Assembly: GCA_036505215.1 (NCBI GenBank)
Contig: DASXTW010000087.1
Span: forward strand, 23,886-87,885
DNA from: Actinomycetota bacterium
Lineage (GTDB): Bacteria; Actinomycetota; UBA4738
Direction: 5' to 3'
Length of the DNA stretch: 64,000 bases
The notes beneath the pieces are model-generated. The model saw nothing but the letters and a program-made list of their open reading frames with translations, had not been told where the DNA came from and did not search any database. This document shows positions 11,731 through 39,930 of the stretch, one piece after another. The first letter of the stretch is position 1; each line of letters opens with the position of its first letter. A program made the position numbers and the translations under genes.

Positions 11731-11811
11731 GTTCGGAACAGGTCAAGACTTAAAGGGACCGAGCGCAATCCAACCAGCCGAATGAGGAGCAAGCCCGTGG
11801 TGGGTCTGGAG

Positions 11812-12164
11812 TGGAGGTGGCGGGAATCGAACCCGCGTCCCCGGGCGACCGGCTGGGGCTTCTACGGGCGTAGCCGCCGGCCAGATCTCACCTCGAGCCC
11901 TCCGGCGGCGGAGGGGCTCTCGGCCAGCCCGGCTGAGATGTCCGGCGGCGGCCACCAGGCCGAACTACCACCGTGAGCCTGCTCACGACGCCCGACCCGC
12001 GGGCGCAGGCGTCCCGCGGCGGACGGCTACCTAAGGTTTGTTAGGCAGCGAGCGCCATCTGAGAGTTGGCACTTGTTGTTGTCCCGGCTTTTAACGAGGC
12101 ATCCGGGGACCTCGGCCCGCTTCCCCCAGGCAGTAACCACCCAGGTCGAAGCCTGTTCACCCCC
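11812..12164 (-). ncRNA. ssrA: tmRNA (transfer-messenger RNA, ssrA); predicted tag peptide ...ANSQMALAA
   Basis: The 5' end GGGGGUGAACAGGCUUCGACC pairs with the 3' end …GGGUUCGAUUCCCGCCACCUCCA (tRNA-Ala-like acceptor and T-arm). Internal ORF GCC AAC UCU CAG AUG GCG CUC GCU GCC UAA. smpB lies immediately upstream on the same strand. Confidence 0.9.
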
Positions 12165-21156: not shown

Positions 21157-21401
21157 TCGTCATCCCTCCCTTTCCGGGGGTCTACGTTCGGCTTCGGGCG
21201 GAGGTGCGAAACGGCTCCCACCTGGCTGACCTGGTCTTTGGCCCCACACTCGCCTGCGGAGGGGTTCGCCGCCGAAGAGGCGGTTTAGCGCCTTCTCCCG
21301 AGCGGCAAGGCCGCGCGGGGCAGGACTTACATCTAAGCCGCACCATGCTCAGCGACCAACGGTCGCCTTACGTGGGTCGTTTCGCCTGCGACTAGCATCG
21401 A

Positions 21402-22175
21402 CTACCGGGAGGACCTCCCCCGGGCAACCACAGACCCAGGCGGGAACCTAGCCGGATTATAACAACGGCCCGGGACGCCCCCTCCCAGAGACCTCGCGGC
21501 CGTGAGGACGCCGACTTCGGCTGCGCCCGCCCTGCGCAGCACGGTGGCGCACTCGGCCGCCGTTGCTCCACTCGTGAGCACGTCGTCCACGAGCACGACT
21601 CGGACGGATTGCACCGGCCCGGCTGCGGCGAAGGCGCCTTGCAGAGCCCGGCGTCGTTCCGGCCCGGCCCTGCGGGCCTGGGGTGCCGTCTCAACAGCCC
21701 GGCGGAGGAGCGCTCGCACCGGCCACCCGGCCAGCGCCCCGACCGCGAGAGCCAGCACTTCGGCCTGGTCGTACCCGCGCTCCCGCCTGCGTCGCGCTCC
21801 AAGCGGCACCCACGTCACGACCGATGGCTCATCCTGCCCACCGGCTCCGCCGACCGGCGGCGCGCGGGCCAGGGCTTCCACCATCGAAGGTGCGAACGCC
21901 TGGGCCACGTGCGAAAGACCCGAGAACTTGAGGCGCAAGAGCGCAGACCGGACCGGCCCCTCGTAGAGGAACGCCGAGCGAGACCAGCCGATGACCGAAG
22001 GGGGGCAATCGCCGCACATCCCGATCCAGTCCTCGAGCGGCCGTCCGCATCGCCGGCAACCGGGAGGGGCCAGCAGGGCAACGCGGGCCGCGCAGCCCGG
22101 GCAGAAGGGCCAGGAGCGGTGGCCGCACCCGACGCATCGTTTGGGGAAAAGGACATCCAGCAGCCGGTCCAGCAT
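21402..22175 (-). CDS. ComF family phosphoribosyltransferase-domain protein
   Basis: N-terminal zinc-finger CVGCG…CPGC…CRRCG…CGDC and a C-terminal PRTase motif VVLVDDVLTSGAT. Confidence 0.75.
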   Translation of the reverse strand: MLDRLLDVLFPKRCVGCGHRSWPFCPGCAARVALLAPPGCRRCGRPLEDWIGMCGDCPPSVIGWSRSAFLYEGPVRSALLRLKFSGLSHVAQAFAPSMVEALARAPPVGGAGGQDEPSVVTWVPLGARRRRERGYDQAEVLALAVGALAGWPVRALLRRAVETAPQARRAGPERRRALQGAFAAAGPVQSVRVVLVDDVLTSGATAAECATVLRRAGAAEVGVLTAARSLGGGVPGRCYNPARFPPGSVVARGRSSR

Positions 22176-24530: not shown

Positions 24531-26745
<2,215 letters not shown>

Positions 26746-26782
26746 GCCCGGGACCGCCGACTCGAGCTCTCCTGCGACCTCA

Positions 26783-27850
26783 TCATCGGAGCCGTTCCTT
26801 CAGCCGGGTCAAGACAGGCGCGGGCATCGGATCCACACCGCGGAGGATCGCCAGATACGTACTGGTGAAGTCCGCCAGCATGACGAAGGAACAAAGGATG
26901 CCCAGCGGGGTCGATCCTTGGACGGCGACCTCTCTGCACTCCAGGCCCGAGCCGGCAATGGCTTCCATTGTGGCTTCCACTCGCCTGGCGATCCGAGGAT
27001 GCTCGCCCGGATGCCGGAGCACGACGAGGCCGAACGGCCGGCCCGTCCGATCGGACCAACCTTCCACCTCGTTGTGATCGAGCTCGGGGAGAACGGCGTG
27101 GAAGGCGGGCACCTTCGCATTCTCGTTCAACTGCGTCTTCCATCGAAGCGCGGCCGCCTCGGCGAGGCCCTCCGAGCCCCACACGACAGGGGTCCGACCC
27201 TGCAGCCACTCGGCGAGCCATTTCGCCCGGTTTCCGTCCACCGGCCGGTCCGGGGCGAGCTCCGCAGAGAGCGGCCCGAGGACATCCGAGGCTCCGTCGA
27301 GCTCGGCACCGGCGTCGGGAAGCAGCCCGACGGCTTCGAGAGCTCCCACGGCGGCCCCGACCAGAAACCCGAGCGCGGCACGCGGTGCCGGAACATGGCC
27401 CGGGATGGAGACGTGCGGGGCCCCGTCCGATCGGGCCAGCGCGGCCAGCTGCCCGCCGGAGCTCAGCGCGATCACCCGGCAGCCCACCGCGACTGCCTGC
27501 GAGTACGCGGCCAGCGTCTCCTCGGTCTCCCCCGAGTACGAGATCGCGATGACCAGCGTGTCCTTCCCACAGAACCCCGGCAGCCCGTAGCCCTTGACGG
27601 TCATCAGGGGAACGGGCAGTCGATCGGCGAAGCAGGCTCTCAGGAAGTCTCCGACGATCCCCGATCCTCCCATCCCGCACACGGCTACCGAGCCGATGTC
27701 TCCGGCGGTGGGCAGATCAGGGGCTCGCCGGCCGAGCGCGAATCCCTCGCCGAGCTGCGTCCCCAGGTCCGCCACCAGCGCGAGCATTCCCCCGGGATCG
27801 GCCTCCCGGACTGTGGCCGGGTCGTCGAGTGTGCCCTGCCCCTTCCTCAT
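26783..27850 (-). CDS. Bifunctional phosphoglucose/phosphomannose isomerase (SIS domain, archaeal-type PGI/PMI)
   Basis: Double SIS-domain architecture (…VAVCGMGGSGIVGDF…, …ISYSGETEE…). Adjacent to the phosphomannomutase gene. Confidence 0.75.
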   Translation of the reverse strand: MRKGQGTLDDPATVREADPGGMLALVADLGTQLGEGFALGRRAPDLPTAGDIGSVAVCGMGGSGIVGDFLRACFADRLPVPLMTVKGYGLPGFCGKDTLVIAISYSGETEETLAAYSQAVAVGCRVIALSSGGQLAALARSDGAPHVSIPGHVPAPRAALGFLVGAAVGALEAVGLLPDAGAELDGASDVLGPLSAELAPDRPVDGNRAKWLAEWLQGRTPVVWGSEGLAEAAALRWKTQLNENAKVPAFHAVLPELDHNEVEGWSDRTGRPFGLVVLRHPGEHPRIARRVEATMEAIAGSGLECREVAVQGSTPLGILCSFVMLADFTSTYLAILRGVDPMPAPVLTRLKERLR

Positions 27851-28026
27851 CCGGAGCCGTCTGGCTTCTCGGCCTCGTCGATCAACATCACCGGGATGTC
27901 ATCCCGGACCGGATAGCGCAGCCCACACTTCGTGCAGATGATGTACTCGGGGTTCTCCTGGTAACGAATCTCGCCCCGACAGCTCGGGCACACCAGGATC
28001 TCCAGTAGTTCCTTGTCCACCGGCAT
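27847..28026 (-). CDS. Trm112-family (DUF343) small zinc-ribbon protein
   Basis: MPVDKELLEILVCPSCRGEIRY…CTKCGLRYPVRDDIPVML, 59 aa. SD AAGGGGGA upstream. Confidence 0.7.
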   Translation of the reverse strand: MPVDKELLEILVCPSCRGEIRYQENPEYIICTKCGLRYPVRDDIPVMLIDEAEKPDGSG

Positions 28027-28046
28027 GGTTCCCCCTTTGTATCGCG

Positions 28047-29402
28047 TCAGTTCGTGTGGTTGATGAGAGCGAGGACTTCGGCCGTCTTCTCCTTCAACAG
28101 CTCCTCCGTGGCGGCTTCCACGTTCAGCCGCAGCAACGGCTCCGTGTTCGAGGGCCGCACGTTGAACCACCAGTCGTCGTATTCCACGGTGAGCCCGTCC
28201 ATGCGATCCTGCCGCGCATCGCGGTACGCCTCCGCGATCCGCTGGATGACCGCCTCCTTGTCCTCCACCGGCGAGTTGATCTCGCCGGAGTCCGCATAGC
28301 GCCGTAGCGGATCGAGCAGCTCCGACAACGGCTTCCCCGCCTTCGACATCTGATCCATGACGACCATCGAGGCCACCAGCCCAGAGTCCGCGTTGTAGTG
28401 GGCGCGGAAGTAGTAGTGGCCAGAGTGCTCTCCACCGAACACTGCGCCGGTCTCGGCCATGACCTTCTTGATGAACGAATGGCCGACCCGGGTCTTCACC
28501 GGCGTGCCCCCGTGCTCCCGGATCACCTCCGGAACGACCCTGGAGCAGATGAGGTTGTGCAGGATAGTGGCTCCCGGCTCTCGCTCGAGCATCCCGATCG
28601 CCACCAGCGCGGTGACCAGGGACCCACCGACTCCCCTGGCGTGCTCGTCGACGAGGAACACACGGTCCGCGTCGCCGTCGAAGGCCAGGCCCAGGTCGGC
28701 CCCATGCTGGAGGACCGCCCGTTTGACGTCCTCCTGGTTCTTGGGGTCGATGGGGTCGGCCGGGTGGTTGGGGAACGTCCCGTCCAGGTCCATGTACAGG
28801 GGCACCAGCTTGCCGGGCAGGCGCTCGAAGAGTTCTGGCACGACCAGCCCCGCCATCCCATTGGCGGCGTCGGCAACGACGGTGAACGGCAGGAACCGCT
28901 CGAGGTCCACGAAGGAGAGCAGGTGCTCGATGTACTCCTGGCGCATCTCACGGGGAGTGATGAGGCCACGGGCGGGGGCGGCGCTCGCGCCGGGCGGCGA
29001 CTCCTGCTCCGCCAGGGCCCGTACCTCTTTGAGGCCGCTCTCGACGCCTACGGGCCGGGCGCCGGAGAGGCACAGCTTCAACCCGTTGTACTCGGGGGGG
29101 TTGTGGCTCGCCGTGAACATCGCCCCGGGCAACGAGAGTCTTCCGGAAGCGAAGTAGACCATGTCGGTCGTGGCCAGCCCTATGTCCACGATGCCCACGC
29201 CGGCCCCCGTCACACCAGAGGCGAAGGCCTCGGACATCGGGGGGGAGGACAGACGGCAGTCCCGGCCGAGGACGATCCGTTCGGCTTTGGCCCAGGATGC
29301 GAAGGCTCGCCCGATCCTGTATGCGGCGCCTTCGTCGAACTGCTCTGGATAGACGCCGCGGATGTCGTAGGCCTTGAAGATGCGCTCGAGGTCGGCCGCC
29401 AT
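28047..29402 (-). CDS. Phosphomannomutase / alpha-D-phosphohexomutase
   Basis: Starts at MAADLERIFKAYDIRG; active-site TASHNP; Mg loop DGDADR. The 80-codon 5' extension in the track was rejected. Confidence 0.85.
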   Translation of the reverse strand: MAADLERIFKAYDIRGVYPEQFDEGAAYRIGRAFASWAKAERIVLGRDCRLSSPPMSEAFASGVTGAGVGIVDIGLATTDMVYFASGRLSLPGAMFTASHNPPEYNGLKLCLSGARPVGVESGLKEVRALAEQESPPGASAAPARGLITPREMRQEYIEHLLSFVDLERFLPFTVVADAANGMAGLVVPELFERLPGKLVPLYMDLDGTFPNHPADPIDPKNQEDVKRAVLQHGADLGLAFDGDADRVFLVDEHARGVGGSLVTALVAIGMLEREPGATILHNLICSRVVPEVIREHGGTPVKTRVGHSFIKKVMAETGAVFGGEHSGHYYFRAHYNADSGLVASMVVMDQMSKAGKPLSELLDPLRRYADSGEINSPVEDKEAVIQRIAEAYRDARQDRMDGLTVEYDDWWFNVRPSNTEPLLRLNVEAATEELLKEKTAEVLALINHTN

Positions 29403-29479
29403 CGCGGCCGATTCTAGCCGACCGACTGTCCCCGCCCTCCTGGAACTCGGTCGCCGATGGCAGGCCGAGAGGGAGACCG

Positions 29480-29665
29480 TTAGCGGTTCGCGACCAGGTC
29501 CAGAACTGAGCCCAGGGGGACGTTCTGTCCCTCGCGCTCCCAACCTCTCCACTCGCACACGGGGCACGAGGTGAAGCACGTGGCGGAGCCTGCGAGGGTC
29601 ATGGTCACCCGGAGCGTCTCCTGCGAACCGCAAGAGGGGCACGAGTTATGAGAAACGAGAGCCAT
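29480..29665 (-). CDS. Small zinc-ribbon protein (61 aa; DUF3039-like, syntenic with the mycobacterial gene next to pmmA)
   Basis: MALVSHNSCPSCGSQETLRVTMTLAGSATCFTSCPVCEWRGW… with two CxxC pairs. AGGTG SD 3 nt upstream of the ATG. Confidence 0.55.
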   Translation of the reverse strand: MALVSHNSCPSCGSQETLRVTMTLAGSATCFTSCPVCEWRGWEREGQNVPLGSVLDLVANR

Positions 29666-29830
29666 CGCACCTGGATGCATCGGCGTAACCACGCGCCGAG
29701 CGCATAGTCCCCCGGCCCGATTTTTTGACCTCTCCACATGGACTAAGGGGCATCCCCCAGTCGGGGGATGCCCCTCTCCGTCTCCTCGTCTCCTCGGGAG
29801 CCGCCCGCCTGCGGCGGACCGCTCCGCGAG

Positions 29831-29885
29831 CCAGGGGGTCCGCAACTGCCTCGCTTCGCTCGTTGCTGCTACCCCCTGGACCCCC
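29831..29885. repeat. GC-rich hairpin repeat, family member (ccagggggt…cgcttcgctcg…accccctgg)
   Basis: Perfect 9-bp terminal inverted repeat. Its reverse complement aligns to the 41876-41942 element (gggggtccaggggg…cgagcgaagcgag…). Confidence 0.6.
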
Positions 29886-31282
29886 TACGTCATCGGCAAG
29901 CCGAGGGTTGCAGCGTATCCCGTTCGATCCGGGGAATAGGACACGGCCGCGGCCACGATCGTTCCACCCCGGGCACTCACCAGGGCGGAAACAGGGCGCC
30001 CCCCCTGGGACGGAAGCGTGATCCTGATCGTCCTTCCCGGCGGGATCGTCCGCTGGCGGATCGATGCCGGTGGAGGCCGGTCGCTCCCGATGAGCCGGAA
30101 GGACACCTCCACCCGCCCCCGGCCGGGATTCTGTAAAAGAAGGAACGAGCGGCCGCCCGACATAGGAAGAGCCGGCATGACCAGCCAACGTCCGGCCGTG
30201 ATCGTGGATCCGTTGAGCATGGCCGAGTCTCCGCCAGGCCCGGTGAGCCTCAGCCCCGCGATCATGGGGCGACCGTTCGAGGCGGCCACGAGCAGCCCGG
30301 CATCTTTCACCCGTTCCGTCTGGAAGGTCTTCACCTCGGCGGGTCCGACCGAGAAGCCCTCCGGACCCGACACCAACCGTTGAACCTTAGGCCCTTCGGC
30401 CACGGCCGAGAGGTCGGCCCTGGAGGCCCCATCGTTCAGAACCACAAGGTGCCGAGCTCCCACATCGGCGCCGGCCGGGATCAGCCACCGGGTTCCGGCA
30501 CCGGGGACGCCCGCCTCGATCCTGATCCCTCCAATCGACAGCGCGAGGCCTCCGGCCACCACCCGGCCCATCCGCTGGATCACCCGCGCCGTGAGCGATT
30601 CCTCGCCTGGACCCTGAAGGAGGAAATCGTTGACCGGGATGCCGACCGAGTGTCGTGGAGCCAGCACGAACGGGCTCAAGGGGCCCGCCGCCACCACTCG
30701 CTTCTCCGTTCGCAGGACCACGTCGAACTCGGCGGGCTCGTCGAAAGGATTCATGACCACCAGATACGAGGTCTGGCCGGCGCCGGTGGGGACATCCATG
30801 ACGAACCAGTTTCGATGGGCTGCCTGCTCGCATCGCTCGGCGGCCAGTCCGCCGGGGGCAACCGTGGCCACGATGGCAGCAGCGCCCACCACTCCGCCGA
30901 AGTACTCCACCTGCGTGGCGTCGGCCGGGTCGTCCGCGGAGACCTCGCGGTAGACCTGCCTGAGAGCGCCGACGGCGAACGTGCTCACCGACCGCGTCCC
31001 ATCCTTGCCCAGCTGGGTCAAGCGGACCCGGACTCGACGCTGCCCTGGATTCGTCACCACCACCCATCCCTGCCACCCGCTGTGCCCCCCGTGCGGGCAG
31101 AACAGAGCGCCGCTCGGGCCGGCTGAGGGAGCGCCCGCAGCCGCGCCCCTGGGCCCAACCGCGCGGTCCAGGACGAGGCCCGACCCGGTCAGGAAGGCCA
31201 CCGCGACCAGCAGAGCGACGGCTCGAACCCGGATGCCCGGCAATCGGTGGGCCTCACCCTCCACTGGTTCCATCTCAGCCAT
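29885..31282 (-). CDS. Membrane-anchored extracytoplasmic hypothetical protein (single N-terminal TM, 465 aa)
   Basis: N-terminal hydrophobic helix AVALLVAVAFLTGSGLVL followed by a large Gly/Val/Ala-rich domain. Start overlaps the stop of the upstream GT2 membrane protein. Confidence 0.55.
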   Translation of the reverse strand: MAEMEPVEGEAHRLPGIRVRAVALLVAVAFLTGSGLVLDRAVGPRGAAAGAPSAGPSGALFCPHGGHSGWQGWVVVTNPGQRRVRVRLTQLGKDGTRSVSTFAVGALRQVYREVSADDPADATQVEYFGGVVGAAAIVATVAPGGLAAERCEQAAHRNWFVMDVPTGAGQTSYLVVMNPFDEPAEFDVVLRTEKRVVAAGPLSPFVLAPRHSVGIPVNDFLLQGPGEESLTARVIQRMGRVVAGGLALSIGGIRIEAGVPGAGTRWLIPAGADVGARHLVVLNDGASRADLSAVAEGPKVQRLVSGPEGFSVGPAEVKTFQTERVKDAGLLVAASNGRPMIAGLRLTGPGGDSAMLNGSTITAGRWLVMPALPMSGGRSFLLLQNPGRGRVEVSFRLIGSDRPPPASIRQRTIPPGRTIRITLPSQGGRPVSALVSARGGTIVAAAVSYSPDRTGYAATLGLPMT

Positions 31283-34200
31283 GCCGGACCGGCCTCCTGG
31301 TCACCCACAGAGCCACCCCCCACAGCAGAACCAGAATGACGATTTCCATGGTCCTGGCCCGTTGGCCGCCGAAATGGACCCGGTAGCCGGCGGGCAGGGG
31401 ACCCGTCCGGAATCCCGTGGCCCATCCGAGGGCCCGGGTCGCTTCGACCGATCCCTTCGCCACGACTGGCTCCAAACGCCATCGCGGATCGAACTGGTCC
31501 AGGAGCAGCACGAGGGCCGGCCTGGACCGCCCCGGCCCCAGGAACCGTTGCCCCGACGGGCCCTCGACCAGCGGCCTCTCCCTCGGCGTGAGCAGTGCTT
31601 CCACGGCCTCGAGCCGCGAGGATCTCGCGGCGCGGCTCCAGGCCGGATCTCCGATATCCGAAGCCAGAGCCACGGCCTTGGCGTTTAGAAAGATGGTCAG
31701 CCCTCTGGCCGAGACCAGATCCAGATCCACCTGCCGGGTGAGCCGTCGGAGCGCCGGGTTCGGCAGGTCACCCGGCTCTGCCAGAACGAACCTGATGCCG
31801 AAGGCAGCCAGGAGAGCCCCGCCGTGCCGGGTCTCCCCGGCCAGAACCTCCACCAGGGACTGGCGGAGGCGCGCGTAGCCCGGGCCCACGTCGGGACGGC
31901 CGATGTCCAGAGCGGAGGCACCGGCGGGATCGGTCACGGCGAACCGAACCGAGGCAGCCCCGGCCGCGACCGTCCCGGTGGGGAGCCCGCCGGGCGGGGG
32001 GAACGCGTCCCCCTCCGGCGACCCGACCCAGAGCACGCGGTAGGGAGGTCCTCCGGCCTCCCCGGCTAGGGGATACGCGACGGGGACTCGCTCGGGGCCG
32101 CCGATATCCCAGGAGGCGCTTCCCGCCTGGACGAGCTGGCCGAACAGTCCCACGGCCAGGAGCGCGGCCATCAGAGCAGTCCCGAGCTGGCGAAGGCCGA
32201 ATTGCGTCCGGCCCACTCCGTGCAGGAGCGAAGCCAGCCCCAACCCAACCAGCACGGAGTAGCTGAAGCCCGCCACGCCTACGTAGGCCACCGGGTTCGA
32301 CAAGGCGGCGGGGAGATATCCCGCCGCCGCGAGCCAGGCCAGGTACACGGATAGGACGGAGGCCACGCCGGCTCGAAGCGCCGTGATGTGATGCTGTTCG
32401 GAGACGAACAAGAGAGCGACGCCTGCGGCGCCGGGAAGGAAGAAGCCGGTCACCCACGACCCCGGCCCTGGGCCGAGCGAGAGCCGGGCGAGGGCGGCGA
32501 ACGAAGCTTCGCCGGCGAGGTCCTGCATTCCCCTCAGCGACCCCCGGGCAATCTCGAGCGTGAGCGGAAACGCCAGCAACGCCGCCAGAGCCAGGGCGAC
32601 GCCCACCAACACGAGCCCTCGCACACGTCGGGCTCCGGTGGGCGGAACGATCAGCACGGCCACCACCACCACTACGGCCGCTAGGATCGCTCCGAGGTAG
32701 AACGAACCGAGGATGGCCAAGCCGAGGGCCGCCCCCACGATCCACCGCCGGACCCGGATCGCCCCCAGATGATCGAACGGCAACACCAGCTTTCCGGCCG
32801 TCCAGGGAAGGCCCGCCAGGAACACGAGGACGGGAATCCTGCCCTGCGAGATGGCCCACAAGACTGCTGAACAGAGCCCGTAGCAGGCTCCGGCCATGAC
32901 AGACGGAATCGGGTCATCCGTCGCCGCCCGCACGGATCGATAGCACCCGATGGCGGCCACGGCCGGCAACGCCACCAGCAGGATCTTCTCGAGCAGAGTC
33001 GGGTTGCCCAGGGCCAGGACACTGCCCGCCCCGAGCAGCCCGAGGGCCGGGCTGGCTGCGGTGGTCCCCCCGAGACCAGTGTGCCTGATCCCCGACACGA
33101 GCTCTGCGAAGAAGGCGGAAGGCGACGAGGGGAACGCCCCGAGGCCGCCACCCTGAACCGGCGACACGCCGGGGAGGTGCCGGTAGGCGAAGGCGGCGGC
33201 CACGGCGCCCAGAGCCCACGCGGTGGCGGCGGGATGGTCCCGGGCGAATCGGAAACCCCGGGTCGGCGCGCTGAGCGCCTCGGCCTCACCGGCGCCTTCT
33301 CGCTTGGGCAAGAGCGCCTGGCCGGCCGACTGCGCCCACCGTCGCAGCCTGATCGTGGTGGGGGCCATCGCCCTGCGGACGGCCCGATCCGGCAGGGACC
33401 GAACCGCCTGGGCCCGTACTCGCCGCCGGAGGGTCCCGGGCAGATGCGCGATGTTCCATCCCCAGGCAGCCAGAAGCTGGTAGGCGTCCTGAAACCGCCG
33501 GAAGAGGGCGAGCACCAGGAGCCGCACGAGCCCCTGGGTCAGGTACAGGGGCAGGACCCAGATGAGAGTCAGCAGCCCGTAGTTCTTGAGGATGCTGGCC
33601 AGGGCCCCACGCTCCTGGTCGTAACGGCGAACGGACGCGCCGGGCGGAGCGGCCCGCTCTCCTTTGAAGCCGGCGCTCAGGTGGCGGGCCACTGCCCTTG
33701 GAGTCATCAGGATGCGGAATCCGGCCAGCCGGGCCCTCCAACAGAAGTCGAGGTCCTGCCGGCCCGAGGCCAGGCGCTCGTCGGGAAGTCCCACCCTGGC
33801 CCAGGTCTTCCGGGAGACGAGCATCGCGCAGGACGAGACGTACATGACCTCTCGGATGCGGTCGTACTGACCCTGATCGATCTCGCCGTCCTCCAGCGGC
33901 GAGTAGGAATAAGCGAAGCGATCGGTGGCGAGGCCGATCTCCCGAAGGACCTGGGGCTGCTCCCAGTCCAACACCTTCGGCCCGACCACTCCCACCCCTT
34001 CGATCCGCTCGGCCGCTTCGACCAGCGCCGCCACGGCTTCGGGTTCGAGGAACGTGTCGTCGTGGAGGAACAGGGCATAGTCCGCTTGCTGGGCCCTCTC
34101 GGACCCCAGCGCCACCGCGATGGCAGAGCCGAATCCGGCGTTCGCGGACAAGCGGATGACCCGGCCCGGCCCCAGCGCCGTCTCCAACAGGTCCGGCGAA

Positions 34201-34388
34201 CGGTCATCCGACCCGTTGTCGACGGCGAGGACCCCGATCCGAGGATGGGTCTGTCTGGCCAGTCCCATCAGGCATTGGGGCAGCCACGCCTCCCCGTCCT
34301 TGACAACGAGGACGACCAGGACGCTCGGTGGCTTCACCTTCCCGGCGTGAGCAGGATCCCGGGGGGCGCGCGTGTCAAGTTGAGCCAT
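31275..34388 (-). CDS. Large polytopic membrane glycosyltransferase: N-terminal GT2 (GT-A) domain and a C-terminal ~700-aa multi-TM domain
   Basis: …SVLVVLVVKDGEAWLPQC…AVDNGSDD…FLHDDTF… (GT2 DxD/ED motifs) followed by more than 12 predicted TM helices. Start set at ATG 34388 (MAQLDT…). Confidence 0.75.
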   Translation of the reverse strand: MAQLDTRAPRDPAHAGKVKPPSVLVVLVVKDGEAWLPQCLMGLARQTHPRIGVLAVDNGSDDRSPDLLETALGPGRVIRLSANAGFGSAIAVALGSERAQQADYALFLHDDTFLEPEAVAALVEAAERIEGVGVVGPKVLDWEQPQVLREIGLATDRFAYSYSPLEDGEIDQGQYDRIREVMYVSSCAMLVSRKTWARVGLPDERLASGRQDLDFCWRARLAGFRILMTPRAVARHLSAGFKGERAAPPGASVRRYDQERGALASILKNYGLLTLIWVLPLYLTQGLVRLLVLALFRRFQDAYQLLAAWGWNIAHLPGTLRRRVRAQAVRSLPDRAVRRAMAPTTIRLRRWAQSAGQALLPKREGAGEAEALSAPTRGFRFARDHPAATAWALGAVAAAFAYRHLPGVSPVQGGGLGAFPSSPSAFFAELVSGIRHTGLGGTTAASPALGLLGAGSVLALGNPTLLEKILLVALPAVAAIGCYRSVRAATDDPIPSVMAGACYGLCSAVLWAISQGRIPVLVFLAGLPWTAGKLVLPFDHLGAIRVRRWIVGAALGLAILGSFYLGAILAAVVVVVAVLIVPPTGARRVRGLVLVGVALALAALLAFPLTLEIARGSLRGMQDLAGEASFAALARLSLGPGPGSWVTGFFLPGAAGVALLFVSEQHHITALRAGVASVLSVYLAWLAAAGYLPAALSNPVAYVGVAGFSYSVLVGLGLASLLHGVGRTQFGLRQLGTALMAALLAVGLFGQLVQAGSASWDIGGPERVPVAYPLAGEAGGPPYRVLWVGSPEGDAFPPPGGLPTGTVAAGAASVRFAVTDPAGASALDIGRPDVGPGYARLRQSLVEVLAGETRHGGALLAAFGIRFVLAEPGDLPNPALRRLTRQVDLDLVSARGLTIFLNAKAVALASDIGDPAWSRAARSSRLEAVEALLTPRERPLVEGPSGQRFLGPGRSRPALVLLLDQFDPRWRLEPVVAKGSVEATRALGWATGFRTGPLPAGYRVHFGGQRARTMEIVILVLLWGVALWVTRRPVRHG

Positions 34389-34504
34389 GAGTTGGATCAA
34401 CAGCAGTCGGGGAAGCGTGGTGGAGCATAGCATTCCCCCCACCGCTGCCGGACCCGGTGGCCGGCGCCGGCATTCACAGAGCTGCGTCCCTACCCGAGAA
34501 AGGG

Positions 34505-34540
34505 CTGAAGGGGGGCTACGGACCCCCCTTCAGCAGCCCG
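34505..34540 (-). terminator. Perfect stem-loop (gctgaagggggg-ctacgga-ccccccttcagc) just downstream of the Lys-rich small ORF
   Basis: 12-bp inverted repeat read from the sequence. Sits between the small ORF stop (34554) and the GT2 start (34388). Could be a terminator or attenuator. Confidence 0.4.
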
Positions 34541-34553
34541 CTCTATCAACGAG

Positions 34554-34712
34554 CTATCTCTTCCTCTTGGCCGTGGACTTCTTCGTCGACTTCTTCTTCG
34601 CCGAAGACTTCCTCTTGGCCGTGGACTTCTTCGTCGACTTCTTCGCCGACTTCTTGGCGGTCGACTTCTTGGCGGACTTCTTGGCGGTCGACTTCTTCCT
34701 GGCAGCTGGCAT
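34554..34712 (-). CDS. Unannotated 52-aa Lys/Ala/Ser/Thr tandem-repeat protein (MPAARKKSTAKKSAKKSTAKKSAKKSTKKSTAKRKSSAKKKSTKKSTAKRKR); histone-H1/HU-tail-like, extremely basic
   Basis: ATG is preceded by GGAGGTGA (4-nt spacer). Lies 25 nt downstream of the whiB stop on the same strand. Uniform AAG/AAGAAG codon repeats. Below the ORF-track cutoff. Confidence 0.55.
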   Translation of the reverse strand: MPAARKKSTAKKSAKKSTAKKSAKKSTKKSTAKRKSSAKKKSTKKSTAKRKR

Positions 34713-34737
34713 GGTCACCTCCTCTCTCACACCTCGC

Positions 34738-34971
34738 TCAGGAGGCCATGCGCTTGAGGCGCCTGCGCTCCCGTTCGCTCATGCCACCCCACACCCCATA
34801 TCGCTCGTCGCGACGAAGGGCGTAGTTGAGACACTCGATGCGGACGGGGCAGTCGGCGCAGATTCGCTTGGCCTCGCGCGACGACCCTCCCTTCTCGGGG
34901 AAGAAGATCTCCGGGTCGTAATCCCGGCAGCGTGCGCGGTCCTGCCATGGAACGAAGTGGTGCACGGCCAT
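34738..34971 (-). CDS. whiB: WhiB-family (Wbl) Fe-S transcription factor, WhiB2/WhmD-like
   Basis: CRDYDPEIFFP…ICADCPVRIECLNYAL…GVWGGMSERERRRL with four conserved Cys. Confidence 0.9.
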   Translation of the reverse strand: MAVHHFVPWQDRARCRDYDPEIFFPEKGGSSREAKRICADCPVRIECLNYALRRDERYGVWGGMSERERRRLKRMAS

Positions 34972-35142
34972 CCCCCGAAATTACATTCTTGTAATTCTGA
35001 AGGAAACGACCCCAGAAACGCAAGTCCCCGGGCAGAACTTTTTGCCCTCCTTTACACCATGCGTCGCGCCGTTCCATGTCCATTCAGAATCGTGGCGTGC
35101 TGAAGCGTCTCGTGCAAGAGATTCTTGCCACTTTTTTGATAG

Positions 35143-35199
35143 TAAAGAGGCTTTACCGTTTTGGTAAAGCTACCTGACGGAATCCGACAAAATCCGGAC
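35143..35199. promoter_or_regulatory. AT-rich element upstream of whiB with three GTAAAG/CTTTAC hexamers in alternating orientation, plus the direct repeat aatccgaca/aatccggac
   Basis: GTAAAG at 35143, CTTTAC at 35151, GTAAAG at 35164. Locally AT-rich in a ~70% GC genome. About 170-230 nt upstream of the whiB start. Confidence 0.3.
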
Positions 35200-35250
35200 C
35201 TTTGGCGGCTTTCGACGTGAGATTCGGCCCCGGCCGACCGCCCGAGTGTG

Positions 35251-37737
35251 TCAGCCCAGAGGGACTACGTTGCGCGAGCGATCGACTCGGCCGTACGTCG
35301 TGGTGCGCTCGGCGGGAACGCGACCGATCTCACGGATCGCCTGCACGAACTCATCGGGCTCCTTGCGAATCCCCCATTCCGCTCCGGCCATCCGGGAGAT
35401 GGTTTCCTCCATGAGAGTTCCTCCGAAATCGTTGGCGCCTCCCCGGAGGATCAGCTTGCAGTACTCCATGCCCATCTTCACCCACGACACCTGCACGTTT
35501 CGGATCCGTGTGTGGAGCAGGATCCGGGCCACGGCGTGCATCCGTCGATTCTCGTCCAGCGTGGGGCCGGGCCGGGCCTTTCCCGCGAGATAGATCGGCG
35601 AGTTCTGCCATACGAATGGGAGAGGAACGAACTCGGTGAAACCGCCGGACTCGTCTTGGATCCTGGCCAGACGCTTGATGTGTCCGACCCAGTGGGGCGG
35701 GGCATCCACATGGCCGAACATGATCGTCGAGGAGCTGCGGATTCCAAGCGAGTGGGCAGTCTTGACGATCTCCTCCCACGTGTCGGCGGGGAGCTTTCCC
35801 TTGGTCAGAACCCACCGGACCTCGTCATCCAGGATCTCGGCCGCTGTGCCCGGGATCGTCCCCAGCCCGCGCCGCTTGCACTCCTCCAGAAACTCCCGGA
35901 ACGAGATCCCCAGGCGCGTGGCTCCGTTCAGTACCTCCATCGGGCTGAACGCGTGGATGTGGATATCGGGGACCCGCGCCTTGATGGCGTCGAGGATGCC
36001 GAAGTAGAAGTCGCCGGGCAGGCTGGGATGCAGACCTCCCTGGATGCATACCTCGGTCGCCCCGTAGTCCCAGGCCTCCTGTGCTCGGTCTGCCACCTCC
36101 TCCAGCGACAACGTGTAGGACTCCGGATCGATCTCCCGCTGGGCGAAAGCGCAGAACCGGCAGCCCGTGTAGCACACGTTGGTGAAGTTGATGTTCCGGT
36201 TGACCACGTAGGTGATCTCGTCCCCCACCGCCTCCCGGCGCAGCTCGTCGGCCACGCGGCACAGGTCCTCCAGCGCAGGGCCAGTAGCCTGGAACAGGGC
36301 CAAGGCCTCATCGTCGGTGAGGTCTGGCCTCCCCGTCGTTGCCTTCGAGAGCGCCTTCTTGAGATCTGCCTCCAGCCGAGCGGACTGCCTCCGCCCGGCC
36401 ACCCACTCCCTGGTCACAGCGATCTGGTCGAAGTCTCCGTACACGTCGACGGCGTCATGTCGCAGGCCGGCGTGCGGGCCCTTGGCGAACGTCAGGCCGA
36501 TGGTTCGGGCCTTCCACTGGACCTCCGGGTCCTGCCACGGCGTGGGCTCGGGCTTCTGGTCCGGGCGGGCCAGGCCATCCGGACCCGTCAACCGGCCCAC
36601 CGGTTCCTGCATCTTGCCGGCGATCCAGGGGTCCGGCTTGACCGCGTACTCCGGATAGATCGCCAGCCGCTCGCGGAGCGTGTATCCCTTCTCCGCGGTG
36701 CGCCGCTCGAGGTCTCGAAGCTTCGGCCAGGGCGCCTCCGGGTTCACGTGGTCGATCGTCACCGGCGAGACCCCGCCCCAGTCGTTGATCCCGGCGTCGA
36801 TCAGCCGTGGGTAGTTCGGGTCCGAGAGGTTGGGTGGGGCCTGCACGTTCATGCGCGGGCCGAACACGACCCGGGCAGTGGCGACCGTGGCCAGGAACTC
36901 CTCTTCCTCTGGCTCGGGGGCATCATGCATGGCCGTCCCCGGCTTCGCCCTGAAGTTCTGAATGATCACTTCCTGAACGTGCCGGTATTTGCGGTGGAGG
37001 TCCCGGATCGCGAACAGCGACTCCGCCCGCTCCCGCAAGGTCTCCCCGATGCCGACCAGGATGCCGCTGGTGAATGGGATCGACAGGCGCCCCGCGTCCT
37101 CGATCGTGCGCAATCTGATCCCCGGAATCTTGTCCGGAGAACCGAAGTGCGGGCCACCCTTCTCCGATAGCCGATCCGAGGACGTCTCGAGCATGATCCC
37201 CATCGAGGCACTGACGTGCTTTAGGCGGGCCATGTCCTCCCACCCCATGACACCCGGATTGAGGTGCGGCAGCAAGCCCGTCTCTTCGATGACCTTGATC
37301 GACACTGCCCGCAGGTAGTCGAGCGTCGAGTGGTAGCCCCGTTCGGCTAGCCACTCCCGCGCGACGGGGTAGCGATCCTCGGGCTTGTCGCCCAACGTGA
37401 ACAGCGCCTCCTTGCACCCGCGCCGGCGCCCGGCCTCGGCGACAGCCACGACTTCCTCCGGGGTGAGAAACGGCCTGTCGAGCTTGGCGGGAGGCTTGGC
37501 GAACGTGCAGTAATGGCAGTGGTCCCGGCACAGCATCGTGAGCGGGATGAAGACTTTCCTGGAGTAGGTGATGATCCTCCCGTGCCCGAGATCCCGAAGT
37601 TTCGAGGCCATCTCGCACAGCGGATCCAGAGCGGGGCCTCGCGCGGAGAGAAGCGCTTCCACTTCATCGAGGGACAGCGCCTTTCCGGCGCGGACTCGCG
37701 CCATTGAACGACGGAGCAGGTGGGCCAGGTCGATCAT
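35251..37737 (-). CDS. fbiC: FO synthase, bifunctional CofG/CofH (7,8-didemethyl-8-hydroxy-5-deazariboflavin synthase) for coenzyme F420
   Basis: Two radical-SAM CxxxCxxC motifs (CRDHCHYCTF, CYTGCRFCAF) in an ~830-aa two-domain protein. Start taken at the internal MIDLAHLL…; the track start is 57 nt further upstream. Confidence 0.9.
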   Translation of the reverse strand: MIDLAHLLRRSMARVRAGKALSLDEVEALLSARGPALDPLCEMASKLRDLGHGRIITYSRKVFIPLTMLCRDHCHYCTFAKPPAKLDRPFLTPEEVVAVAEAGRRRGCKEALFTLGDKPEDRYPVAREWLAERGYHSTLDYLRAVSIKVIEETGLLPHLNPGVMGWEDMARLKHVSASMGIMLETSSDRLSEKGGPHFGSPDKIPGIRLRTIEDAGRLSIPFTSGILVGIGETLRERAESLFAIRDLHRKYRHVQEVIIQNFRAKPGTAMHDAPEPEEEEFLATVATARVVFGPRMNVQAPPNLSDPNYPRLIDAGINDWGGVSPVTIDHVNPEAPWPKLRDLERRTAEKGYTLRERLAIYPEYAVKPDPWIAGKMQEPVGRLTGPDGLARPDQKPEPTPWQDPEVQWKARTIGLTFAKGPHAGLRHDAVDVYGDFDQIAVTREWVAGRRQSARLEADLKKALSKATTGRPDLTDDEALALFQATGPALEDLCRVADELRREAVGDEITYVVNRNINFTNVCYTGCRFCAFAQREIDPESYTLSLEEVADRAQEAWDYGATEVCIQGGLHPSLPGDFYFGILDAIKARVPDIHIHAFSPMEVLNGATRLGISFREFLEECKRRGLGTIPGTAAEILDDEVRWVLTKGKLPADTWEEIVKTAHSLGIRSSSTIMFGHVDAPPHWVGHIKRLARIQDESGGFTEFVPLPFVWQNSPIYLAGKARPGPTLDENRRMHAVARILLHTRIRNVQVSWVKMGMEYCKLILRGGANDFGGTLMEETISRMAGAEWGIRKEPDEFVQAIREIGRVPAERTTTYGRVDRSRNVVPLG

Positions 37738-37796
37738 GGTCGGGCCCGAATCTACGGCCGGCGTCACGTTCAGGCAAACGGCGGCAAGATACACGG

Positions 37797-38756
37797 GTGA
37801 GAGTTACGGCACTGGCGGGCGGGGTCGGCGCGGGGAAGTTCCTGCGTGGGCTGGTGAGAGTGGTCCCGGAGGAAGACGTGACCGTCGTGGTCAACACCGG
37901 CGACGACATCACCGTCCACGGCCTGCACGTCTCGCCCGATCTGGACTCCGTCACGTACTGGCTGGGCGGGGTGGCCGATCGGGTCCGCGGATGGGGACGG
38001 GACGGAGAGTCGTTCAGGGCAACGAAGGAGCTGCGGGCATTGGGCGCCGAGGGCGCATGGTTCGGCCTGGGCGATCTCGACCTGGCCACGCACCTCTTCC
38101 GGACCCGGCTCCTGGCGGAGGGCAGAACGCTGTCCGAAGCAACCCGCGAGGTGACCAGCCGTTTCGGGATCGGGGCCCGGGTCCTGCCGATGACCGATGA
38201 CTCCGTGACTACCCGCGTCGAGGTCGTGGACGAAGCCGGCCGATCCCTCGACCTGCACTTCCAGGAGTACTGGGTTCTGCGTGGGGCGCGGGACGAGGTG
38301 AAGTCCGTTCGGTTCGAGGGCGCTGAGCGGGCCCGCCCCGCTCCCGGCATCCTCGAGGCGATCGCGACCGCGGAGGCTGTGGTGTTCTGTCCTTCGAACC
38401 CCATCGTGTCCATCGACCCGATCCTTGCGGTTCCGGGCGTGCGCGAGGCGGTGGCGGCGCGGCGGGATCGGGTGGTGGCCATCTCTCCGATCGTGGGAGG
38501 AGCCCCGCTTCGCGGCATGGCGGACAGGCTCCTTCCCGTCGCCGGGGTGGACGTGTCTGCGGCGGGAGTCGCCGAGCACTACGGAGGGCTGCTGGGAGCC
38601 TTCGTCTTCGACCACGCAGACCGCGACCTCATCGACCGAATCCTGGCATCGTGCGATCAGGGACGGGTCGCCGACACGATCATGGTGGACGACGCGGCCG
38701 CCGAACGCCTCGCCCGAGAGGCTCTCGAGGTCGCCGGAGGCCCCCGTGTCGATTGA
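37797..38756 (+). CDS. fbiA: 2-phospho-L-lactate transferase CofD
   Basis: MRVTALAGGVGAGKFLRGL… (CofD/YvcK N-terminal signature). GTG start at 37797. Confidence 0.85.
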   Translation: MRVTALAGGVGAGKFLRGLVRVVPEEDVTVVVNTGDDITVHGLHVSPDLDSVTYWLGGVADRVRGWGRDGESFRATKELRALGAEGAWFGLGDLDLATHLFRTRLLAEGRTLSEATREVTSRFGIGARVLPMTDDSVTTRVEVVDEAGRSLDLHFQEYWVLRGARDEVKSVRFEGAERARPAPGILEAIATAEAVVFCPSNPIVSIDPILAVPGVREAVAARRDRVVAISPIVGGAPLRGMADRLLPVAGVDVSAAGVAEHYGGLLGAFVFDHADRDLIDRILASCDQGRVADTIMVDDAAAERLAREALEVAGGPRVD

Positions 38757-39930
38757 GATCCTCCCGCTCCGGGGGATGCCCGAGATCGGCCCTGGCGACG
38801 ATCTCGCGGCCATCGTGGGTCGGGCTCTCTCCGACGCACGCGTCCAGCTTCGGGACGGTGACGTGGTGGTGGTGACGCAGAAGGTGGTGTCGAAGGCCGA
38901 AGACCGGGTCGTGCCCGAGGGACCGGAGGGAAAGGCGAGCTGGGTGGCGAAGGAGACCCGTCGCGTGGTGGCCCGGCGGGGAGACCTGGTGATCGCGGAG
39001 ACCCGTCACGGACTCGTCTGCGCCAACGCCGGCGTGGACGCGTCCAACGTTGCCGAGGGGTACCTCGCCCTTCTTCCGGAAGACCCCGATCGCAGCGCCG
39101 AGGGGATCCGAGCCGCCCTCAGCTCATCGAGCGGCGCCGAGGTTGCGGTGGTGATCACTGACACGTTCGGCCGGCCATGGCGCCAGGGACTGGTGAACGT
39201 GGCCATCGGCTGCGCCGGCTTCCCGTCGCTGGTGGACCTGCGGGGGACCAAGGACGCGGTCGGGCGGATCCTGGAGGCGACGATAGAGGCCCTGGCCGAC
39301 GAGGTGGCCGCGGCCAGCGGTCTGGTCATGGGCAAGGCTGACGGGGTCCCTGCCGCCGTGATCCGTGGGGTCCACGCCGAAGGACCTCCGCTTCCCGCCT
39401 CTGCGCTGGTACGGCCGGATGAAGAGGACCTGTTCAGGGAGTCCTCGCTGGAGTCGCTTCACTCCTGGAGTGAGGCGACCAGGTTCGGCCCGGGCGATGT
39501 CGGACGGGACGTCGTTCAGGAGGCCCTCCTGGCCGGAGCAACCGCCCTTCGCGCCGGCGACGAGCAGCCATGGATCCTGATGGAGGTCTCCCGTGGGCGG
39601 GCCAGGGCCCGGCTGGCGGCGGCGACGGAAAGCGAGGCGGCGCGGACCCTCGCGGTGGCGCCTGTGGTCGTGGTGGGATTCGCCGGCCCGCCCACCTCCT
39701 CCGCCGACGGCGCCAGGGGGTGGAATGAGCCGGCGTGGGACGAGGCCGCCCTCCTTTTCGCGGGGGCTGCTCTGCAGAAGGTCCTGCTCGCCTTCCATGC
39801 CCTCGGCCTCGGGTCGTGCTGGATACCTCCCAACCGCTTCAGGACGAGCGAGGTGAGAGAAGCGCTTGGCCTGGCGGCCGGCCGAGGCTTCGTGGGAGCG
39901 ATTGCCGCAGGCCCTCTCATGCCTCCATGA
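38746..39930 (+). CDS. fbiB: Bifunctional coenzyme F420:L-glutamate ligase (CofE) with a C-terminal nitroreductase-like domain
   Basis: GTG 38746 overlaps the cofD stop. The CofE domain is followed by a C-terminal domain with …ALGLGSCWIP… (FMN nitroreductase fold), typical of actinobacterial FbiB. Confidence 0.85.
   Translation: MSIEILPLRGMPEIGPGDDLAAIVGRALSDARVQLRDGDVVVVTQKVVSKAEDRVVPEGPEGKASWVAKETRRVVARRGDLVIAETRHGLVCANAGVDASNVAEGYLALLPEDPDRSAEGIRAALSSSSGAEVAVVITDTFGRPWRQGLVNVAIGCAGFPSLVDLRGTKDAVGRILEATIEALADEVAAASGLVMGKADGVPAAVIRGVHAEGPPLPASALVRPDEEDLFRESSLESLHSWSEATRFGPGDVGRDVVQEALLAGATALRAGDEQPWILMEVSRGRARARLAAATESEAARTLAVAPVVVVGFAGPPTSSADGARGWNEPAWDEAALLFAGAALQKVLLAFHALGLGSCWIPPNRFRTSEVREALGLAAGRGFVGAIAAGPLMPP

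Follow-up and report, generated by a model that had tools for sequence, protein, structure and literature searches.

A short lysine-rich, histone H1-like open reading frame conserved behind whiB in one uncultured lineage of Actinomycetota

In a 64,000-nucleotide (nt) stretch of contig DASXTW010000087.1 of an Actinomycetota bacterium (the whole stretch is called the window hereafter), we analyzed a 52-codon open reading frame (ORF) that directly follows whiB, the gene of a WhiB-like (Wbl) iron-sulfur transcription factor. The ORF encodes a very basic peptide, and we refer to it as the polycation ORF. With moderate confidence, we favor a reading in which its product is a disordered, nucleoid-associated polycation similar to histone H1 and to chlamydial Hc2, expressed as the second cistron after whiB. 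The elements of the locus are the following:

34738–34971, minus strand: whiB, 77 amino acids (aa), TGA stop at 34740–34738; Pfam Whib at 9.4e-29 and 100 bits
34713–34737, minus strand: 25-nt spacer containing the Shine-Dalgarno sequence GGAGGTGA at 34722–34715, read from the sequence
34712–34554, minus strand: polycation ORF, 52 codons, ATG at 34712 and TAG at 34556–34554
34560–34596 and 34608–34644, minus strand: two perfect 37-nt direct repeats inside the polycation ORF, 48 nt (16 codons) apart
34504–34515 and 34523–34534, minus strand: perfect 12-bp G/C-rich hairpin with arms GCTGAAGGGGGG and CCCCCCTTCAGC and a 7-nt loop

A preliminary description of this DNA had placed a lysine-rich ORF of 52 aa at 25 nt past the whiB stop, with a strong Shine-Dalgarno sequence, an ATG, and a perfect 12-bp stem-loop, and all these coordinates were confirmed. 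The distance to the ATG is 2 nt from GGAGGTGA and 5 nt from its GGAGG core. The product is MPAARKKSTAKKSAKKSTAKKSAKKSTKKSTAKRKSSAKKKSTKKSTAKRKR, which matches the previously given peptide exactly. It is composed of 21 Lys, 4 Arg, 10 Ser, 6 Thr, and 9 Ala, with no acidic residues, and has a net charge of about +25 and a computed isoelectric point (pI) of about 12. The hairpin begins 19 nt past the stop codon, and its two 12-nt arms are 100% complementary.

At the DNA level, the ORF displays tandem-repeat periods of 12, 18, and 27 nt. The near-perfect repeats of the preliminary description are real: the 27-nt period is 92% identical, and the two 37-nt copies are perfect. The 37-nt pair is a recent internal duplication, and apart from it the other repeat units are short and degenerate (60–76% identity). 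Within the 64 kb, Lys-rich or AAG-repeat stretches were found in the polycation ORF only, and the hairpin pattern occurred once, against 0.01 occurrences expected by chance. Together with the conservation of the ORF in relatives, this indicates that neither the ORF nor the hairpin is a chance feature.

We scanned for the locus at the species level, using one genome per species with WhiB, and retrieved 67 loci with WhiB 81–96% identical. They belonged to metagenome-assembled genomes (MAGs) of uncultured Actinomycetota or "Actinomycetes" from soil and groundwater. An intact ORF rich in Lys, Arg, Ala, Thr, Ser, and Pro, 43–154 aa long and starting 19–80 nt past the whiB stop, was present in 50 of the 67 loci. 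In five others the ORF reached the contig end, nine presented the same coding sequence with a frame break, a gap of Ns or a premature stop, and two had no DNA downstream of whiB. A single locus (L074, on an oddly binned contig) was without the polycation ORF. Considering only the 65 loci with downstream DNA, 50 contained an intact ORF and 14 a cut-off or frame-broken one. Homologs after whiB in related actinobacteria, which the preliminary description had proposed to search for, do exist in one uncultured lineage, although not beyond it in the loci examined, as described below.

All ten metagenome contigs with a WhiB identical to that of the window presented the polycation ORF (nine complete, one cut off), and the copy at locus L002 was identical to the window copy. 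Complete copies beside an identical WhiB measured 47–52 aa, and the copy at L014, where WhiB is 96% identical, measured 45 aa. The copies of close relatives share a start of the form MPAA[R/K][K/R]KS, an AKRKR end directly before the stop, the ribosome-binding site, and the hairpin. Their lengths differ by -6, -9, -12, -15, and -21 nt, all of them multiples of three, so that the length variability suspected beforehand from the repeats takes the form of in-frame repeat gain and loss (45–52 aa among close relatives). In six of the contigs with identical WhiB, 10–26 of the 234 nt of whiB differ from the window with no amino-acid change. In the polycation ORF of close relatives, non-synonymous and synonymous codon differences are about equally frequent, and the non-synonymous ones are conservative (among S, T, and A, or between K and R).

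Across the family as a whole, a GGAGG or AAGGGGG motif lies just 5' of the ATG in nearly every copy. The pooled composition (about 6000 residues) is 28% K, 26% A, 18% R, 14% T, 7% S, and 4% P; acidic, aromatic, and aliphatic residues are nearly absent. Lysine is encoded by AAG 1762 times and by AAA 12 times in the family, and by AAG exclusively in the window copy, like in the reference genes (AAG 41, AAA 4). Gene callers applied to related metagenome contigs also called the ORF, at 47–61 aa and with no Pfam assignment, once on the wrong strand. By eye, MPAAKK, MSPAKKRSTAKRK, and MAAAKKTAARK, the motif types at the N-terminus, seem to group by WhiB identity level, which suggests that the gene has been inherited vertically.

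On these comparisons, we read the ORF as a genuine conserved coding gene, because its start, stop, frame, and composition are kept although the nucleotides of the repeats are not; a non-coding minisatellite would show the opposite pattern. Conservation of the nucleotide repeats only, which had been named beforehand as an outcome that would speak against a gene, is the reverse of what we found. Selection would act on charge, composition, and reading frame, and not on the exact sequence. A minisatellite of the mycobacterial interspersed repetitive unit/variable-number tandem repeat (MIRU/VNTR) type was considered and rejected: the repeat occupies a single locus in 64 kb, its units are degenerate, and peptide features are conserved across relatives, whereas nucleotides are not.

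Regarding the kind of protein, 37 of 57 family members matched Pfam HC2 (PF07382, histone H1-like nucleoprotein) at E ≤ 1e-3, the best at 7.8e-18. Two relatives scored singly reached 42.9 and 43.7 bits, with a gathering score of 40. Neither HU (Bac_DNA_binding) nor any other folded domain was found in the ORF or its relatives, whose only Pfam matches were HC2 and Extensin-type low-complexity families. AlphaFold, run on the single sequence, predicted no secondary structure (predicted template modeling score, pTM, of 0.14). By composition and repeat design, the family is a predicted stand-alone disordered polycation of the H1/Hc2 type, and the window copy is, on the same comparison, a short form (45–52 aa) of a lineage-specific family that spans 43–154 aa.

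Several observations weigh against this interpretation. The 52-aa copy of the window itself has no Pfam match, even at E ≤ 10, and no NCBIfam match; the histone H1-like character proposed for it earlier is supported by the matches of its relatives. Long relatives scored 32.5–40.7 bits against the NCBIfam H1-like models, whose curated cut-offs are 135 bits for histone_lik_HC2 (NF038052) and 80 bits for hist_H1_lk_Burk (NF038053); neither the window copy nor the long relatives reached them. Moreover, HC2 similarity in low-complexity sequence reflects composition and is not a proof of common descent. A phmmer search with the 52-aa peptide gave no match in 5.8 and 1.84 billion proteins, although the composition correction of this program removes low-complexity queries. 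Third-position GC content (GC3) is 0.92 in the Lys frame and 0.92 in the antisense frame, and the codon statistics are equal. The frame is broken in nine of 64 copies (L019, L022, L024, L025, L026, L040, L047, L059, and L063); L059 and L063 break at a shared position, and some of the nine could be true pseudogenes. Finally, polycations also bind RNA, ribosomes, and polyphosphate, and DNA is not the sole candidate ligand.

Broken frames are concentrated in long-read "MFD" MAGs (six of 20, vs. three of 45 in the others), which suggests that most of them are assembly errors in the repeat. Codon usage and GC3 were discarded as strand discriminators, as the antisense frame scores the same; strand and frame were instead called from the conservation of the ribosome-binding site, ATG, stop, and hairpin and from gene order. 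Look-ups of the exact sequence returned nothing for the 52-aa peptide, for a 58-aa version with a GTG start, or for eight relatives. Conventional homology searches fail to detect this family, and such genes are for that reason systematically under-described.

The two genes are likely co-transcribed, judging by their arrangement: they lie on the same strand with a 25-nt spacer, which leaves no room for a terminator or a complete promoter, and a hairpin follows only the second gene. A scan for sigma-70-type promoters, not tuned to actinobacteria, found none. Two further elements, one on either side, bracket the putative two-gene unit:

35150–35170, minus strand: terminator-like hairpin with a T-run 3' of fbiC, the upstream boundary of the whiB unit
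34422–34436, minus strand: TGCTATGCT, a motif resembling an extended -10 element, located between the hairpin and GT2, a glycosyltransferase gene

The hairpin behind the polycation ORF is a family trait. In 56 of 61 family loci, its stem GAAGGGGGG / CCCCCCTTC (GAAGGGGG...CCCCCTTC; G6/C6) lies 17–31 nt past the stop, and in almost all intact copies the next 70 nt after the stop codon have a folding energy of -29 to -48 kcal/mol. The tail CCTTTCTC is poor in T (family median of 3 T per 10 nt) and did not pass the T-run rule of the terminator scan. We consider the hairpin a probable terminator of the whiB and polycation unit. A formal covariation analysis found the core pairs invariant, with double changes at one pair only. 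The stem is kept as sequence and not merely as pairing, beside a hypervariable ORF. It may simply be an optimal terminator, or it may have a protein- or RNA-recognition role. An autoregulatory switch based on pairing between the 3' arm of the hairpin and the ribosome-binding site upstream of the ORF was rejected: copies of the window subgroup have GGAGGTGA as this site and yet retain GAAGGGGGG in the hairpin, with no co-variation.

Downstream of the hairpin, the -10-like motif takes the forms TGCTATGCT and TGCTAGGCT, in the contexts ...AATGCTATGCTCC... or ...GTGCTAGGCT.... It is present in loci L001–L010 and in many of L011–L077, and a related sequence occurs in L091, which belongs to a sister group without the polycation gene. 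The motif is probably the promoter of GT2 and the start of the next transcription unit, which would leave GT2 outside the whiB unit.

The preliminary description had called the ORF translationally linked to whiB. This part is not supported: the two coding regions are separate, the second has a ribosome-binding site to itself, spacer length ranges from 19 to 80 nt across the family, and the position of the ORF in the frame of whiB is not constant. We also rejected read-through into the ORF or its fusion with WhiB, given the different frame, the in-frame stops in the spacer, and the same variation in spacer length.

The best solved-structure match for the window WhiB was Streptomyces venezuelae WhiB (8DY7/8DY9 chain H, 4e-31), from the complexes of RNA polymerase with WhiA and WhiB (PMC10243135). 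Other Wbl structures ranked lower: WhiB1 (1e-18), WhiB4 (3e-14), WhiB3 (8e-11), and WhiB7 (8e-10). From the Wbl domain and this ranking of structure matches, made without a phylogeny, the gene product is assigned to the WhiB (WhiB2/WhmD) class of Wbl Fe-S transcription factors.

On the minus strand, the gene order is fbiC (37794–35251), whiB, the polycation gene, the hairpin, a GT2 glycosyltransferase of 1055 aa (34442–31275), DUF5719 (31282–29885), a phosphomannomutase/phosphoglucomutase (29642–28047), a PGI-type isomerase, and a phosphorylase. The genes cofD and fbiB are divergent, on the plus strand. This neighborhood seems to resemble whiB2-fbiA-fbiB of Mycobacterium tuberculosis. The fbiC-whiB spacer (34972–35250, 279 nt) has 53% GC, compared to 67% in the window, and this AT-rich region is likely the promoter and leader region of whiB.

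Among the loci examined, the polycation gene is restricted to one lineage. In 13 loci with WhiB 68–76% identical, including Brevibacterium, Gordonia, Streptosporangiaceae, and Nanopelagicales, no polycation ORF follows whiB. Outside the lineage, the group nearest by WhiB shows 69–73% identity and comes from records labeled Euzebyales and Egibacteraceae (L091–L094 and L096). These loci keep the order whiB, GT2 (1054–1139 aa), DUF5719, with a non-coding gap of 100–290 nt between whiB and GT2. The genes 5' of whiB differ: F420 genes in the window lineage vs. RuvB-like AAA, nucleotidyl transferase or ABC/GT genes in the Euzebyales- and Egibacteraceae-labeled loci. As these sister lineages retain whiB-GT2-DUF5719 without it, the polycation gene is, on the synteny, a lineage-specific addition between whiB and GT2 in one uncultured Actinomycetota lineage. 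It may have originated de novo from the 3' region of whiB or as a copy of a Lys-rich tail from elsewhere.

Two contigs carry unexpected labels. L074 (CAZOQX010000007.1, WhiB 83%) and L027 (JBLMXP010000168.1, WhiB 93%) come from bins labeled Candidatus Saccharibacteria and Planctomycetaceae, respectively, and are probably mis-binned. Among the close loci, only L074 lacks the polycation gene.

At the functional level, what is established is the ORF with its signals, its conservation, frame maintenance, and composition, the HC2-type similarity of its relatives, the synteny, and the restriction to one clade. Translation, co-transcription, DNA binding, and a physiological coupling to WhiB are what we infer. 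In the mechanism that we propose, the gene would be transcribed from the whiB promoter as a second cistron ending at the G6/C6 hairpin, and its separate, strong ribosome-binding site would drive efficient translation. The product would bind nucleic acid electrostatically and non-specifically through Lys and Arg side chains, in a mode that can be likened to the histone H1 C-terminal domain, chlamydial Hc2, the HupB/HupS tails, and the H1-like domain of DdbA (PMC2848022, PMC5676037, PMC11229371, PMC3643593). It could thus act as a nucleoid-coating, DNA-compacting or DNA-shielding protein whose amount tracks whiB expression, and hence cell division or developmental state, while repeat slippage would freely alter its length. 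WhiB is invariant, whereas the neighboring polycation varies strongly in length and sequence and keeps its composition, a pattern that fits a charge-driven function.

A charge-driven function would not by itself select DNA, and it is conceivable, if unlikely, that the polycation is real but has RNA and ribosomes or polyphosphate granules as its main ligand, with a role in dormancy or starvation and not in nucleoid structure. A polycationic disordered sequence would bind any polyanion, nothing in the locus specifies DNA, and AlgP, itself histone H1-like, acts on the spacing of polyphosphate granules (PMC9239181). However, the best-characterized compositional relatives, namely Hc2, the HupB/HupS tails, and DdbA, bind DNA (PMC2848022, PMC5676037, PMC3643593). 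Moreover, the genes identified in the flanking region examined (25873–39930) included neither a polyphosphate kinase gene nor a ribosomal one, and no NCBIfam model matched the window copy, including those of small basic ribosomal proteins if they are in the library.

We regard as improbable that the polycation serves WhiB as a dedicated partner, by providing DNA affinity in trans or by acting as its chaperone or stabilizer, an idea that goes back to the DNA- or RNA-binding partner or WhiB chaperone of the preliminary description. In WhiB7, an AT-hook supplies DNA affinity in cis. The position of the gene directly after whiB is strictly conserved across the lineage, and there is a precedent for a Wbl protein acting on the nucleoid, as WhiB4 condenses the mycobacterial nucleoid (PMC6111044). 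Nevertheless, WhiB is under extreme purifying selection while the polycation varies freely in sequence and length, which is not expected for a specific protein-protein interface, and besides its short N- and C-termini the polycation has no conserved non-repeat docking motif. The window WhiB is itself net basic (17 K+R vs. 12 D+E, pI 9.4), which disfavors direct binding by a polycation of charge +25; the chaperone or partner proposal is unsupported. Sister lineages, Streptomyces, and Mycobacterium run WhiB without the polycation gene.

Least probable of all is that the sequence is not functional, being either a repeat-expanded 3' untranslated region of whiB or minisatellite whose frame has remained open by accident, or a recently arisen de novo ORF with no selected function: its low-complexity, repeat-driven sequence with open frames on both strands, the failure of sequence searches to detect a homolog, the nine broken copies, and the absence from sister lineages would fit, but the ATG, ribosome-binding site, stop, and terminal peptides persist despite divergence of the repeat nucleotides, all indels between close relatives span whole codons, the absence of Asp, Glu, and hydrophobic residues over about 6000 residues implies a tightly constrained composition, the broken frames fall mostly in long-read MAGs as assembly error would have it, and the repeat sits at one locus and is not dispersed like MIRU elements.

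Among known systems, the H1/Hc2-like polycation proposed here is most similar in design to chlamydial Hc2 (hctB). Hc2 binds DNA, and its length varies from 165 to 237 aa between strains through lysine-rich repeats (PMC2848022). Both are stand-alone proteins with short repeats rich in Lys, Ala, Arg, and Thr and with in-frame length variation, which in our case amounts to 45–52 aa among near-identical strains and 43–154 aa across the lineage. However, the window copy is far shorter, Ser-rich, and without an HC2 score, it comes from another phylum, and common descent is not demonstrable. Besides, hctB does not lie beside a Wbl regulator gene, and DNA binding by the window polycation is a prediction.

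Within the same phylum, the tails of HupB/MDP1, HupS, TopA, and Ku and the N-terminal domain of DdbA contain repeats of the AKK, PAKK or TAKK type that are thought to give non-specific DNA affinity (PMC5676037, PMC11229371, PMC5714199, PMC3553676, PMC3643593). Of these, the tail of HupB is an H1-like module rich in lysine (PMC5676037), and DdbA has an H1-like DNA-binding domain (PMC3643593). These modules are fused to a folded domain (HU, topoisomerase, Ku or DksA-like), whereas the "tail" of the window is the whole protein. To see whether the HU of this lineage lacks a tail, HU was sought in the window, and it was not found. Pseudomonas AlgP and the H1-like proteins of Bordetella and Burkholderia are also Lys/Ala/Pro repeat polycations, and the long relatives match NF038053 weakly (33–38 bits vs. 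the cut-off of 80); those proteins are much longer and have no whiB linkage, and AlgP acts at polyphosphate granules (PMC9239181). The whiB/whiB2 (whmD) locus of Streptomyces and Mycobacterium likewise encodes a WhiB-class Wbl, and the window whiB lies beside cofD/fbiB and upstream of phosphomannomutase-type genes. The polycation gene was in none of the Brevibacterium, Gordonia, Streptosporangiaceae, Nanopelagicales, Euzebyales, and Egibacteraceae loci examined.

Thus, bacterial H1-like polycations, actinobacterial lysine-repeat DNA-binding modules, and the length variability of such proteins are already known. The new element is the fixed pairing of a polycation gene with whiB, and the minimal form of 45–52 aa is mildly surprising. 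In line with the earlier statement that this arrangement is undescribed, we found no paper in the full-text literature linking whiB with an H1-like gene; the nearest concept was nucleoid condensation by WhiB4 (PMC6111044).

H1-like Lys-rich modules are a recurring actinobacterial route to DNA affinity, usually as tails on folded proteins. In more than 60 species-level genomes, such a tail stands on its own at a set place after whiB, with as few as 45–52 residues. Co-expression with WhiB, if it occurs, would offer a simple and testable link between a regulator of division and development and chromosome packaging. The polycation gene would likewise serve as a clear example of a gene confined to one lineage and shaped by repeat slippage under purely compositional selection. 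More speculatively, and we hold this scenario as doubtful, an H1-like gene would have been born or captured 3' of the essential cell-division regulator gene whiB in an uncultured lineage of order level and would have become fixed in a two-gene operon, so that nucleoid coating or compaction would be dosed with WhiB-driven septation or dormancy. The repeat would then change rapidly under charge-only selection, giving a de novo bacterial "linker histone" wired to an Fe-S regulator.

Regarding RNA elements, Rfam gave no RNA family at the polycation locus. Elsewhere in the window, it identified two:

21217–21444, minus strand: full-length raiA RNA motif (Rfam RF03072, 145 bits vs. a gathering score of 101)
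11809–12164, minus strand: transfer-messenger RNA (tmRNA) gene (Rfam RF00023, 142 bits)

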